DNA of 31,287 nt from a virus (lineage: Duplodnaviria; Heunggongvirae; Uroviricota; Caudoviricetes). Shown piece by piece: positions 9,001-15,000 of the stretch. Within the stretch, counting starts at the first letter, position 1, and each line of letters starts with the position of its first letter. The position numbers were made by a program. The DNA lies in IMG/VR virus record IMGVR_UViG_2548876857_000005, positions 1 through 31,287 of that record. One strand, 5' to 3'.

Positions 9001-12000
9001 CCAACAAAAAATGAGGTGCTTGCAGCAGATGAAATGAAAGAAACTATTCTTGAATTAGCTGCGCGCCTGAACTGCGCTTCACTGTTGAAAGAGCATTTTC
9101 AGCAGCCCTGAGGAATCTTTTATCATCACGAGCATCGGTCTTTGGTATTTCTTTAATGAGATGTTCCATTTCGGCGATCAGGTAATCTGACACAGCGTTA
9201 TTCTTACCAAGTGCATCCATGGCTTTGATTATCTTTGGGAGAAGAAAACCGACCTGTAACTCAAGAGTGAAAATTCTGTCAAAAAGCGCTGTATTTTCTT
9301 CATTCATATCTGTTCATTATCTTTGCGAGGCAGCCATCTCACATTGTTGGGTTTACGCCAGTGCCCACCACCGGCGGGCTGAAGACTTAACATATCCAGG
9401 GGTCCGGAACCGATAAATCCTGATAAATATCCATGAACGCAAAAATCAGATACGGCCTGTCGGCTGCCGTTCTGGCGCTGATTGGTGCAGGGACGTCTGC
9501 GCCTGAAATCCTCGACCAGTTTCTTGACGAAAAAGAAGGTAACCACACCACGGCATACCGTGATGGTGCGGGGATCTGGACCATCTGCCGCGGTGCCACC
9601 CGAGTGGATGGTAAGCCTGTCGTCCCGGGTATGAAGTTATCGAAGGAAAAGTGCGACCAGGTTAACGCCATTGAACGTGATAAGGCGCTGGAGTGGGTGG
9701 AGCGCAATATTAAAGTACCGCTGACCGAACCCCAGAAGGCGGGTATCGCGTCATTTTGTCCTTATAACATTGGCCCCGGTAAGTGTTTCCCGTCTACGTT
9801 TTACAGACGGATTAATGCAGGTGATCGAAAAGGTGCCTGCGAAGCGATTCGCTGGTGGATTAAGGACGGTGGCAGAGACTGCCGTATCCGCTCAAATAAT
9901 TGCTACGGTCAGGTATCCCGGCGAGACCAGGAAAGTGCACTGGCGTGCTGGGGAATTGACAGATAAGCAGAATATTTTGCTGAAAAATGACGTTGGCCAA
10001 CGCGGGCGGATAACACGAAATCCTGCGAACTGGCAAAAACTAAGTGAATAAAAGTAAAACCCCGTTTGTTGGCCGCAAACGGGGTTTTGTGTTTCTGACC
10101 TTGAGTAAGGCAAGGGAGAACATGGGAAAGTATAAACGAATTCTGTTGAGATTGACTATGAAAAACGGCCTTGAACTGAAAGCGCCTGTAACTGATGACG
10201 TCAGCAGAGCGCTGGCTTTTGCTATTAAGTGGGTGGCGGTCGGTATTGCTGTGTCTCCGATGCTGTATGGGCTGGCAAAACTGGTCATTGCGTTGAAATC
10301 GTGAAGAGGATTAAGCATGTCAGACAAGCTCATAACGCTGGCGAAGATCCTCTGTGTAATCGTCGGCATTTCATTTTCACTAATGCTGGTTGCTATTTGC
10401 TTTTCCACTGCCTGGCGCGTCTTAACTTTGTCATGGCTGGTGGGGTGAGGGGGATATGAACCGTGTTCTGTGTGTGGTGATTATTGTCCTGCTGGTAGCC
10501 TGTGGTGTGCTTAGTCTGGGGCTGAATCATTACCGCGATAACGCCATTACCTACAAAGCGCAACGCGATAAAAAAGCCAGTGAGCTGAAGCTGGCGAACG
10601 TGACAATTACTGATATGCAGGTACGCCAGCGTGATGTCGCTGCACTTGATGCCAGATACTCGAGGGAATTAGCCGATGCGAGAGCTGAAAATGAAACTCT
10701 GCGTGCTGATGTTGCCGCTGGTCGTAAGCGCCTGCGCATCAACGCCAACTGTCCAGGCTCCTTGCGTAAAGCCCCCATCACCTCCGGCGTGGATAATGCA
10801 ACCGGTCCCCGACTGGCAGAAGCCGCTGAACGGGATTATTTCATCCTCAGAGAACGGCTGATGGCAATGCAGAAGCAACTGGAAGGAGCACAGGAATATA
10901 TCCGTACCCAGTGTATACCGTGATGTTTTGTTATGAAGGTGTTACTGGTAACGTTAAGGTAATTTAACAAAGAGTCAGTTCCGGACTTTATAGTGTGCTC
11001 AGTTCATGGACAAAAACGATTTCTGTGATAAATATTTTGAATATTATTTACAGGTAAATGGAGTGGGGCGCATGGATAGAAATATTACAATAGAGTATGA
11101 AGTATATGCCCGTATTGTATGGGCAGAGAAGGCAAAAACACGGTAATTCCGTGTGTTGCCATGATACCTGATTGGCAGAATAGTTGTTTGGTTTTGAGTA
11201 TATAGTCAGCGTTTTTTGTTCAGTAATTGCCCCCTCAAAAAATAATAAAATAAGGTGATTATTTTTGTTTATTATTTAGTTTTTTTTGTGTGTTATTTTA
11301 TTGTTTTTGCGTGGTTTGTTTTTTATTGTTATTTCATTAAGGGAAGGTAAATTCAGGATGGCAGTCTGTAGATAATCGGAGGTCACTTATGCTACATGAT
11401 CACGTGGCAGAATGTCTGGAGAAAAAAGGACTGTACCGGAGAGCAGCTGAACGATGGGCAAAAGTGATGGTACAGCTAAGTGATGACCAGAAAAGAAAAG
11501 TGGCGGCACAGAAACGAGCAGAGTGTTTGCGTAAGGCGCGCCGGACTCCGGTTTCACCGGTGAACCTGACCGAAATAAAACAAGCGGTCAACAGACTACA
11601 TTCTGAGTTGGGAATGGGATTTGAAGAGCGGCGGGTATTCCGACGATATAAAGGGACAGGAGAACAGAATACGTCCGGAAACGCGCGGTCAAAAAAATGC
11701 TAAAAAATATCTGAGAGAGTTATTGCCTGTTACCATAAGAAAAAGCGACTTTAGTGGTCGCTTTTTGTGTCATATATAAGTCGTTTAAGTAAACCTGTCT
11801 GAACAGGTGCTCTGGTCGTGTTTGTCTTTGTTGGGTACAAATTGAGAATATTTTTCATTAATTAATCTTCTTCTGCAGGCTTCAATAACCCACGCTGAAA
11901 AATTACCTGAACCTTTCAGGTCAAGAGCGATGTTAATTTGTTCAATTATCTGGTTTGGAAATCGGATGTTGCGGGTTGTTGTTCTGCGGGTTCTGTTCTT

Positions 12001-15000
12001 TGATGACATAATGTTGCCCCGTATTCAGTGTTGCTGATTTGTATTATCTGAAGTTGCTTTTACGCTAATTTGATGCAGATCAATTAATACGATACCTGCG
12101 TCATAATTGATTATTTGACGTGGTTTGATGGCGTAGATGCACGTTGTGACATGTAGATGATAATTATTATCATTTTGCGGGTCCTTTCCGGCGATCCGAC
12201 AGGTTACGGGGCGGCGACCTCGCGGGTTTTCGCTATTTATGAAAATTTTCCGGGATCCATGTCCGGTTTCTCTTCAAGTTAACTATATGAAAAATATAAA
12301 AACAGGTCTTCTGTGAACCGGACATGAACAAAAAACAGACATGTAAACCGGACATGACCGGTTTTGTTGTGATTGTGAGGTGAGAGTTTTTGCGAGGTGA
12401 GGAGTGGCTACGCAGACTGAAGTTGCCAGGCATTTAAGTCTGACCGATCGCCAGCTTCGCAGATTGCAGAAATTGCCGGGTGCCCCGATATCGAATAAGC
12501 GAGGGCAACTGGATCTGGATGCCTGGCGCGATTTTTACATATCGTATCTGAGGAGAAGTAAAAACGATGTGCCTGATGGCGATAGCGAAGACGACTATGA
12601 GGAGAAATTGCTTATTGCCAGATGGGAACTGACAGCAGAACAGGCTGTTACACAGCAGTTAAAAAATGAGGTGTCAAAAGGAAAACTTATTGACACCGGG
12701 TTCTGTATTTTTGCCCTCAGTAAGCTGGCAATGGCGTTATCCAGTACGCTTGATTCCATCCCTTTATCCATGCAGCGACAGTTTCCTGATTTAACACCGC
12801 GCCATCTTGACCATCTGAAAACCCTTATTGCGAAGGGGGCAAATCAGTGTGCGCGGGCAGGGGATAAATTACCGGATTTACTCGATGAATATATCAGAGC
12901 AACAACTGAATAATATGATGGCTGCCGTTTCGGTTGCGCTGCAGCCTCTGGTCAGGGTTGTACCAATGACGGCAGTTGAATGGGCTGATCAAAATTATTA
13001 TCTGCCTAAAGAATCTTCATATGGTGAGGGAGAATGGAAAACGCTGCCATTCCAGATCGCCATTATGAACTGTATGGGTAACGACCAGGTTCGCACGGTT
13101 AACCTGATTAAATCTGCCCGTGTTGGCTATACAAAGATGTTGCTGGGGGTGGTCGGGTATTTTATTGAGCATAAATCCCGAAACAGTCTGCTTTTTCAGC
13201 CCACGGATTCTGCCGCTGAAGATTTTATGAAGTCTCACGTGGAGGCGACGATTCGGAACGTGCCATGCCTGAAAGACCTTTCCCCATGGCTGGGTCGTAA
13301 ACATCGTGACAATACTCTCACGCTGAAACGCTTTTCATCGGGCGTCGGTTTCTGGTGCCTGGGCGGTGCAGCCGCCAAAAACTACCGTGAAAAATCCGTG
13401 GACGTGGTCTGCTATGACGAGCTTTCCTCGTTCGAGCCGGATGTCGAAAAAGAGGGCTCGCCAACCCTGCTGGGGGATAAGCGTATTGAGGGCTCTGTAT
13501 GGCCAAAATCCATTCGCGGCTCGACGCCTAAAATCAAAGGTACCTGCCAGATCGAAAAAGCGGCCAACGAGTCGGCGCATTTCATGCGTTTCTATGTGCC
13601 CTGCCCGCACTGTGGGGAGGCGCAGTATCTGAAATTTGGCGATGAATCCACGCCTTTTGGCCTTAAATGGGAGAAGGACAGCCCCGAAAGCGTTTTCTAC
13701 CTCTGTGAACATCATGGCTGCGTGATCCATCAGTCTGAGCTTGACCAGAGTAACGGGCGCTGGATCTGTGAAAACACGGGTATGTGGACCCGTGACGGCC
13801 TGATGTTTTTCAGCGCCCGGGGGGATGAAATTCTGCCGCCGCGCTCCATCACGTTCCATATCTGGACGGCGTACAGTCCGTTCACCACCTGGATACAGAT
13901 AGTCTATGACTGGCTGGATGCACTGAAAGATCCCAACGGCCTGAAAACCTTTGTGAACACCACGCTGGGCGAGACCTGGGAAGAGGCCGTGGGCGAAAAA
14001 CTCGATCACCAGGTACTGATGGATAAGGTGGTGCGTTACACGGCGGCGGTGCCTGCCCGGGTGGTTTATCTGACGGCGGGCATTGACTCGCAGCGAAACC
14101 GTTTTGAGATGTATGTCTGGGGATGGGCACCGGGAGAGGAAGCCTTTCTGGTGGATAAAATCATCATTATGGGCCGTCCCGATGAGGAAGAGACGCTGTT
14201 ACGTGTGGATGCGGCGATCAACAAAAAATACTGCCATGCAGACGGAACCGAAATGACCATTTCCCGTGTCTGCTGGGACACCGGGGGGATCGATGGTGAA
14301 ATTGTCTATCAGAGGTCAAAAAAACACGGTGTTTTCCGGGTGCTGCCGGTAAAAGGCGCATCTGTCTATGGCAAGCCGGTGATCACCATGCCGAAAACCC
14401 GCAATCAGCGGGGCGTGTATCTGTGTGAAGTGGGGACGGACACCGCAAAAGAAATTCTCTATGCCCGTATGAAAGCCGATCCCTCGCCTGCGGATGAAGC
14501 CACGTCGTATGCCATCCGTTTTCCTGATGATCCGGAGATTTTTTCGCAGACAGAGGCGCAGCAACTGGTGGCGGAAGAGCTGGTGGAGAAGTGGGAAAAA
14601 GGAAAGATGCGTCTGCTGTGGGATAACAAAAAGCGGCGTAACGAAGCGCTGGACTGCCTGGTGTATGCCTACGCGGCATTACGTGTGTCCGTGCAACGCT
14701 GGCAGCTTGATCTGGCTGTACTGGCAAAATCCCGGGAAGAAGAGACGACCCGGCCAACCCTGAAAGAACTGGCAGCGAAGCTGTCCGGAGGAGTGAATGG
14801 TTACAGTCGCTGAACTGCAGGCGCTGCGTCAGGCGCGCCTTGATTTATTAACCGGTAAACGGGTGGTGTCTGTCCAGAAAGATGGTCGCAGAATTGAATA
14901 TACGGCGGCTTCTCTGGATGAGCTTAACCGGGCGATCAATGATGCGGAGTCGGTACTGGGGACAACCCGGCGTCGCCGTCGTCCGCTGGGAGTGAGGTTA

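Follow-up and report, generated by a model that had tools for sequence, protein, structure and literature searches.

Three functional PerC homologues encoded on lambdoid prophages, pchABC, are needed for the LEE (locus of enterocyte effacement) to be fully expressed and for virulence, according to the account of Iyoda & Watanabe 2004 given in PMC4456613. Pch proteins share the Pfam family PF06069 and the LEE1/ler target with PerC, which is encoded by perABC on the pEAF plasmid of enteropathogenic Escherichia coli (EPEC) (PMC4764244). The two differ in their setting and in their importance: PerC is plasmid-borne, a member of an operon, and dispensable for the LEE under many conditions, whereas Pch is prophage-borne, monocistronic, and multicopy and is required in enterohemorrhagic E. 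coli (EHEC) (PMC4764244). Pch activates LEE1 only if it is silenced by H-NS/StpA/Hha/YdgT and lowers H-NS occupancy, acting as an anti-silencer (PMC4764244). The group 1 pch genes differ from one another at only three nucleotide positions; all three raise ler::lacZ expression in K-12 at least 4-fold, their transcripts go up under SOS-inducing conditions, and activation of LEE1/ler has been published for PchA of the O157:H7 strain PA20 (PMC5931665). Here, we describe a pch locus in the virus record IMGVR_UViG_2548876857_000005, the whole of which (31,287 nucleotides, hereafter the window) was analyzed. This 31-kb window is a lambda-like prophage, and the locus in question lies between its lysis gene Rz and the cohesive-end site cosN.

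Almost certainly, the locus is the pch cargo cassette in its standard form, carried between Rz/Rz1 and cos by a lambda-like prophage of EHEC/EPEC-type E. coli. The parts of the cassette, with content of guanine plus cytosine (GC) where relevant, are as follows.

10924..11388, plus strand: AT-rich leader and putative regulatory region of pch, 465 bp, GC 33.3%, with no annotated gene
11378-11382, plus strand: Shine-Dalgarno (SD) sequence GGAGG, read from the sequence, 6 nt 5' of the pch ATG
11389..11703, plus strand: pch, group 1 (pchA allele), 104 aa, PerC-family LEE1/ler activator by its Pfam PerC match and identity to PchA
11740..11766, both strands: bidirectional intrinsic terminator predicted from sequence and folding, AAAAAGCGAC-TTTAGTG-GTCGCTTTTT

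The 104-aa protein matched Pfam PerC (PF06069) with an E value of 3.8e-44 and a score of 149.3 bits (cut-off, 22.6), its residues 1-89 aligning with positions 1-89 of the 90-position profile. All 104 residues are the same as those of PchA encoded by prophage Sp4 of E. coli O157:H7 Sakai (ECs_1091), and the DNA of the coding sequence (CDS) is identical to that of the Sakai pchA CDS. The stretch that begins where Rz ends and takes in the leader, gene, and terminator has 99% DNA identity to the Sakai Sp4 copy. In UniRef, the exact 104-aa protein is labeled "PchABC family transcriptional regulator" and is recorded on at least 1000 contigs. The initial annotation, made from the sequence alone, had proposed a PerC/Pch-like regulator here; on alignment, the open reading frame (ORF) is, as judged by its sequence, PchA itself.

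Paralogues with little effect on ler are present in EHEC (PMC6265319; PMC5931665), and the ORF might have been one of these, with little LEE effect and of the pchD (group 2) or pchE (group 3) type, or a decayed copy. We consider the chance of this negligible. Complete identity to Sakai PchA in both protein and CDS DNA rules out a low-effect or decayed paralogue, the SD sequence and start codon of pch are intact, and 687 of 688 pch CDS records are at least 99% identical, which is strong conservation.

By analogy with published PchA, with which it is identical, the protein would activate LEE1/ler by relief from H-NS. The standard cassette has an AT-rich regulatory leader, pchA, and a hairpin terminator, together spanning approximately 10924-11861. 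In the published mode of action, PchA binds at the LEE1 promoter, as it does at other horizontally acquired loci, and relieves their silencing by H-NS/StpA/Hha. Host-regulated transcription of pch in lysogens has been published, with LrhA, NtrC/sigma-S, and butyrate (through Lrp) as inputs, and these host signals would act through the leader. At the level of translation, the accounts of pchA mRNA in PMC7769764 and PMC7873438 describe an anti-SD:SD structure that blocks translation and is opened by the small RNA (sRNA) DicF at low oxygen; an occluded ribosome-binding site would likewise hold translation of this copy back until DicF frees it at low oxygen. Our predicted fold of 11330-11480 has the SD region pairing weakly with pch codons 9-11. 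The description of the leader as a regulated region in the initial annotation agrees with these published inputs, namely, LrhA, NtrC/sigma-S, butyrate/Lrp, and DicF. Finally, pch shares the orientation of the late operon and sits at its 3' end, so that SOS-induced late transcription may also read into it, in keeping with the SOS induction that has been published for the group 1 genes.

That prophage carriage could be linked to control of host virulence genes, as also suggested at the outset, is borne out by the published role of PchA at ler/LEE1 from lambdoid prophages. Because this role was published about two decades ago, however, the link offers no new lead. The locus is textbook EHEC biology that was already known, and the copy in the window is one more intact example of it.

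The backbone that borders the cassette was well defined on both sides.

10456..10923, plus strand: Rz spanin gene (Pfam Phage_lysis, E 2e-46), the left backbone edge of the cargo slot
10676-10861, plus strand: Rz1, an ORF embedded in Rz
12209-12220, plus strand: cosN cohesive-end sequence GGGCGGCGACCT (12 nt; lambda left end), read from the sequence
12404..12913, plus strand: small terminase subunit of the Nu1 type (Pfam Phage_Nu1, E 1e-18), the right-hand backbone

The setting of pch is thus that of a lambdoid prophage, with Rz/Rz1 on one flank and cos, Nu1, and the large terminase gene on the other. The counterpart of Rz is labeled "lysis protein" in the annotation of a near-identical O145:H28 locus, and that of the Nu1-type gene is annotated as "terminase small subunit" in locus L001. 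The right end of lambda (...CAGGTTACG) stops at 12208, and in the alignment, the end of the lambda record falls exactly one base before cosN GGGCGGCGACCT.

Every feature named in the initial annotation was present, either where it had been placed or within a few bases. Its AT-rich island of about 1.3 kb was upheld in composition and ORF content. GC content was 39.2% across the 1285 bp from Rz to cosN (10924-12208), compared with 53.4% for the window, and only 0.17% of 1285-bp windows were equally low; the GC scan thus identified the most AT-rich stretch of the 31 kb. For the leader (10924-11388), the corresponding share of 465-bp windows was 0.06%, and the lowest-GC windows of both sizes in the entire 31 kb begin at 10891. 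The coding part is not itself AT-rich, as the pch CDS has a GC content of 49.2%. The extent of the island, on the other hand, had to be revised. By blastn, 11862-12208 and the final 347 bp of the lambda genome have 89.6% identity, and between Rz and this right-end block lambda carries bor, lambdap78, and lambdap79. As lambda homology resumes at 11862 and the lambda slot holds other genes, the cargo extends from about 10924 to 11861 and the right 347 bp are backbone. So delimited, the cargo has a GC content of 38.9%, compared with 51-53% in the lysis and terminase genes. It has these marks of a moron: extra DNA in a variably filled slot, distinct GC content, and, as far as sequence and folding tell, a hairpin terminator of its own. 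The lambda genes occupy the same slot, with Rz to the left and a ylcI homologue and cos to the right, and the cargo is unrelated: lambda has a serum-resistance lipoprotein of the outer membrane, and the window has a transcription regulator.

Of 5426 complete E. coli genomes, 673 carry the pch CDS, at 1877 places (median, 3 per genome). The leader was found in 673 of these genomes as well, at 1880 places, always at full length and with no annotated feature, and since the counts match, leader and CDS are inherited as one unit. Among 50,697 phage genome records, the cassette occurred only as two fragments of an induced O157 prophage. The genomes that match best are of serotypes O145:H28, O103:H2, O45:H2, and O121, in which RefSeq annotates the same arrangement, with 99.0-99.6% identity. 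These four are LEE-positive serotypes of Shiga toxin-producing E. coli.

It is also important to point out how the arrangement compares among relatives. Among the group 1 PerC homologues on lambdoid prophages of O157:H7 Sakai, PchA, PchB, and PchC (ECs_1091 and its paralogues), the pchA copy has the same protein, the same CDS, and the same position after Rz, with a leader and terminator that are 99% identical. In Sakai Sp4, however, the lysis-pchA segment is inverted and IS629 stands in place of the ylcI/cos side, whereas the window is intact and retains the lambda order ylcI-cos-Nu1. The prophages of O145:H28 and O103:H2 have the intact, lambda-order cassette, like the window. In the Sakai Sp4 locus (32131-39827), IS629 and ISEc8 flank the holin-endolysin-Rz-pchA block, which is inverted with respect to the terminase genes. 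Of the pch cassettes that we found, only that of E. coli A25, from a monkey (locus 1501-2640), is clearly divergent, its leader being 88% and its CDS 94% identical. The same cassette lies there beside an HNH endonuclease and Terminase_2 packaging module and not one of the lambda Nu1/A type, and homology stops exactly at the start codon (ATG) of the 74-aa gene that converges on pch. In the A25 copy, divergence is concentrated in two places, the promoter-proximal leader half and the 5' part of pch.

Between pch and this convergent gene lies the hairpin at 11740-11766, 36 nt beyond the pch stop codon and 18 nt beyond that of the convergent gene. Its stem is 10 bp long, 4 of the pairs being G-C, and its loop has 7 nt, with stem-loop energies of about -14 kcal/mol on the plus strand and -11 on the minus strand, and a U run follows the stem on both strands (UUUUUGUG on plus, UUUUUCUUAUGG on minus). 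Sakai and A25 have the identical hairpin. It escaped the pattern scanner, as A/T runs lengthen the stem. The shared bidirectional terminator anticipated between the two ORFs is thus recovered as a predicted structure that folds on both strands. Such a hairpin would most likely end both convergent transcripts, keeping transcription of the convergent gene out of pch and that of pch out of the convergent gene and cos.

The convergent gene, ylcI, and the DNA beyond it comprise three segments.

11785..11861, minus strand: variable C-terminal tail, codons 50-74 and stop, of the YlcI-family gene; cargo DNA, lambda homology ending at 11862
11862..12009, minus strand: conserved N-terminal domain, codons 1-49, of the YlcI/YnfO type (DUF3950); lambda backbone, probable ribbon-helix-helix (RHH)
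12010..12208, no strand assigned: conserved non-coding DNA from the ylcI start to cosN (lambda right end), 199 bp, defined by alignment

The 74-aa ORF occupies 11785-12009 on the minus strand, as first described. Its product scored 63.8 bits against Pfam DUF3950 (cut-off, 25) and 34.5 bits against NCBIfam NF041551 (YlcI_YnfO_N; cut-off, 30). Lambda carries a 64-aa homologue on its minus strand (48303..48109; 2710-2904 in locus L003) whose first 53 residues show 88.7% identity and for which NC_001416 has no annotation. YlcI of DLP12, YnfO of Qin, and this lambda ORF have the same DUF3950/NF041551 domain and the same position and orientation beside cos, whereas the tail in the window (residues 50-74) comes from the pch cassette and is unlike theirs. 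Across homologues, residues 1-49 are nearly invariant and the tails are entirely different, a pattern that fits a putative recombination junction at about codon 50, where lambda homology ends. With the boundary between cargo and backbone inside ylcI at about this codon, the C-terminal tails vary between prophages. The ylcI gene is not cargo; it belongs to the lambdoid backbone and is transcribed against the late operon, with only its tail and stop codon supplied by cargo DNA.

Is the 74-aa ORF a gene at all? Its conservation might instead reflect a packaging constraint on cos-proximal DNA, and some observations point that way. The 64-aa ORF is unannotated in RefSeq lambda, no sigma-70-like promoter was found upstream of the 74-aa ORF, and the adjoining non-coding DNA is itself highly conserved, 12010-12208 having 94% mean identity in an alignment with lambda and four prophages. 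The p-distance of this segment from lambda is 0.08, against 0.45 at silent sites of the adjacent ylcI. The substitution pattern within the ORF, however, is that of a protein. Over 49 codons, the window and lambda differ by 15 synonymous and 5 nonsynonymous changes, which gives proportions of differing sites of 0.45 for synonymous (pS) and 0.044 for nonsynonymous (pN) positions. In an HK97-type prophage copy (E. coli CP027459.1), the upstream DNA is unrelated and the protein is nevertheless conserved (pS, 0.64-0.69; pN, 0.03-0.06). The same motif is retained in divergent relatives with 31-54% identity, and in K-12, ybcW-ylcI is listed as a convergent overlapping transcript pair from transcriptome sequencing (PMC12288877), so that ylcI is transcribed there. 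A non-genic origin is thus most improbable: the 74-aa ORF is a real gene under strong purifying selection, with a pN/pS of about 0.1. The related ynfO is counted among the uncharacterized genes of K-12 (PMC11551758). A conserved, selected 64-aa lambda ORF beside cos is missing from the reference record.

It was further suggested in the initial annotation that the 74-aa protein may be an autoregulator or may regulate its neighbor. In its fullest form, this would make YlcI a dedicated partner of pch, acting as a repressor or autoregulator on the intergenic DNA or the leader, the two genes forming one module. The two are adjacent and convergent with a common terminator, YlcI is probably a DNA-binding protein, and the pch cassette provides the YlcI tail, with the same 74-aa form found beside pch in A25. 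The distribution of the two genes argues against such a partnership. The ylcI-cos block is in 4296 of the 5426 E. coli genomes, at 10,081 places, and so in over six times as many genomes as pch with its 673 genomes and 1877 places. Lambda and the K-12 prophages DLP12 and Qin have the block without pch, and Sakai Sp4 pchA works although IS629 replaces the ylcI side. In addition, the conserved domain of YlcI belongs to the backbone and it is the tail that varies. Given the breadth of the ylcI block, a dedicated regulator of pch is unlikely, and we regard the single-module interpretation as very improbable.

As for the RHH fold assigned to the 74-aa protein, the convergent ORF exists, and the RHH label is an interpretation supported by several weak signals that agree with one another. 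Sequence searches of the PDB with the 104-aa or the 74-aa protein gave nothing meaningful, nor did a YlcI profile built from close homologues. When divergent members were included in the profile, the top PDB match was a CopG-family RHH chain, in register (E 0.22, not significant). Comparison with Arc by hhalign gave E values of 0.028 and 0.0096 at a probability below 5%, with the RFP strand and first helix aligned at E 0.0096. One relative matched Pfam RHH_6 at E 0.092, and a HicB-like PHROG matched at E 0.0099. None of these signals is significant, and they are mutually consistent in register. Two AlphaFold2 models of YlcI (mean predicted local distance difference test scores, 69.6 and 72.3) have an extended N terminus followed by helices at 19-32 and 37-55; a Foldseek search of the PDB with the first model found nothing. 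Relative to described RHH regulators (Arc, Mnt, and CopG, and antitoxins of the KacA and ParD type), YlcI has nonsignificant scores and no toxin partner adjacent to its gene. From the profile comparisons and models taken together, YlcI likely has an RHH fold, and RHH is a reasonable working fold for DUF3950.

Several considerations weigh against the reading of the locus as the standard pch cassette with the functions proposed above. As the window is prophage DNA only, the LEE-directed output is one that we infer from the closest genomes. For pch, no promoter could be placed, the 5 sigma-70-like matches in the region being not above the 4.2 +/- 1.8 expected from shuffled sequence; for ylcI, no promoter-like (sigma-70-like) site was found in 12010-12208. 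We found no paper that shows silencing of the pch leader by H-NS. The binding of H-NS to the leader, read-through from the late operon into pch, and termination at the 11740-11766 hairpin are steps that we infer, the last from the predicted fold, and the RHH assignment of YlcI draws on subthreshold scores only.

Within the leader, two further features were found.

11006..11146, plus strand: 46-aa ORF, a doubtful gene, with a match to phrog_2157 over its full length (E 1.2e-36)
11133..11154, minus strand: terminator-like hairpin ACACGG-AATTA-CCGTGT followed by UUUUU, found by terminator scan

The 46-aa ORF has no homologue outside the pch cassette and no Pfam or NCBIfam match, and of the 4 substitutions that separate three copies, 3 are nonsynonymous. 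By its sequence, it is probably not a gene.

The hairpin raises the possibility that the leader holds a second element, a minus-strand RNA of roughly 50-60 nt that ends at 11154-11133 and is either antisense to Rz read-through or trans-acting. The hairpin is unidirectional, being terminator-like on the minus strand, and its fold of -18.3 kcal/mol for 51 nt (z -3.6) was equaled by 0 of 200 shuffled sequences. In A25, moreover, the distal half of the leader is better conserved than the proximal half, and the sole change in the stem retains pairing, as G.U, on the minus strand only. This covariation evidence, however, amounts to one substitution, no convincing -35 element lies upstream on the minus strand, and the hairpin is without annotation and matches no Rfam family. 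One named candidate, the multicopy prophage sRNA HnrS, was rejected, as HnrS maps to Sakai Sp9, Sp10, and Sp12 (PMC13502914) and not to Sp4, the pchA-bearing prophage that we checked. We consider a second element unlikely overall.

What YlcI does beside cos is a matter on which we can offer only a tentative suggestion. It is conceivable, at rather low probability, that YlcI is an RHH DNA-binding protein whose role is linked either with the packaging site or with the end of the late operon; it might bind repeats between its start codon and cosN, oppose late transcription, or take part in a contest between helper phages and satellites. Within the conserved segment 12010-12208 lie a 13-nt inverted repeat (12079-12091 / 12099-12111) and, at 12157-12173, a perfect 17-bp palindrome, ATGATAAT-T-ATTATCAT; the palindrome and the inverted repeat (12079-12111) are candidate sites for an RHH dimer. 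Hints of such a role are that ylcI adjoins cos in both lambda-type and HNH/HK97-type packaging modules, that it is under strong purifying selection, and that a satellite, described below, has a pair of relatives, one with a terminase fusion. In all, a small-terminase DNA-binding domain (Pfam Terminase_2, profile positions 1-53, E 1.6e-11) is present at the C terminus of two DUF3950 relatives, one of them being in that satellite. Separately, a sigma-70-like site (GTGACA-16-TATCAT, 10/12 matches) overlaps the 12157-12173 palindrome and is directed towards cos.

A satellite resembling the phage-inducible chromosomal islands (PICI) was observed in E. coli CP027459.1 / AP026754.1 (locus coordinates approximately 1-6900). 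It carries an integrase, a capsid gene, DUF4222, a D5-type primase, and a Terminase_2 small subunit of its own, along with a weak, subthreshold AlpA-like match. Two DUF3950 genes lie on its opposite strand, and the product of one (P0274, 120 aa) is fused to a small-terminase N-terminal DNA-binding domain. The satellite abuts the end of a lambdoid prophage that bears a DUF3950 gene of its own.

Searches for YlcI relatives were affected by contamination. A scan of one genome per species returned mostly contaminating lambda control DNA and showed no taxonomic breadth. Matches in assemblies of Cohnella, Pedobacter, Streptomyces, Pseudomonas, Flavobacterium, and other genera were identical to lambda, and many of these sat at the ends of contigs or on contigs some 3.5 kb long; they look like lambda control or spike-in contamination. 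An exhaustive HMMER search yielded only 195 clusters, many of which were frameshifted lambda reads.

No tRNA genes were found in the window, and at Rfam gathering thresholds, no family was found within 10924-12208. Elsewhere in the window, the same Rfam search identified the STnc100 sRNA (RF02076, 101.6 bits) at 5404-5570, just upstream of a 645-aa ORF (5711-7648), and the sok antitoxin RNA (RF01794, 103.9 bits) at 1249-1398, which implies a toxin-antitoxin locus of the hok/sok type in the early region of the prophage.

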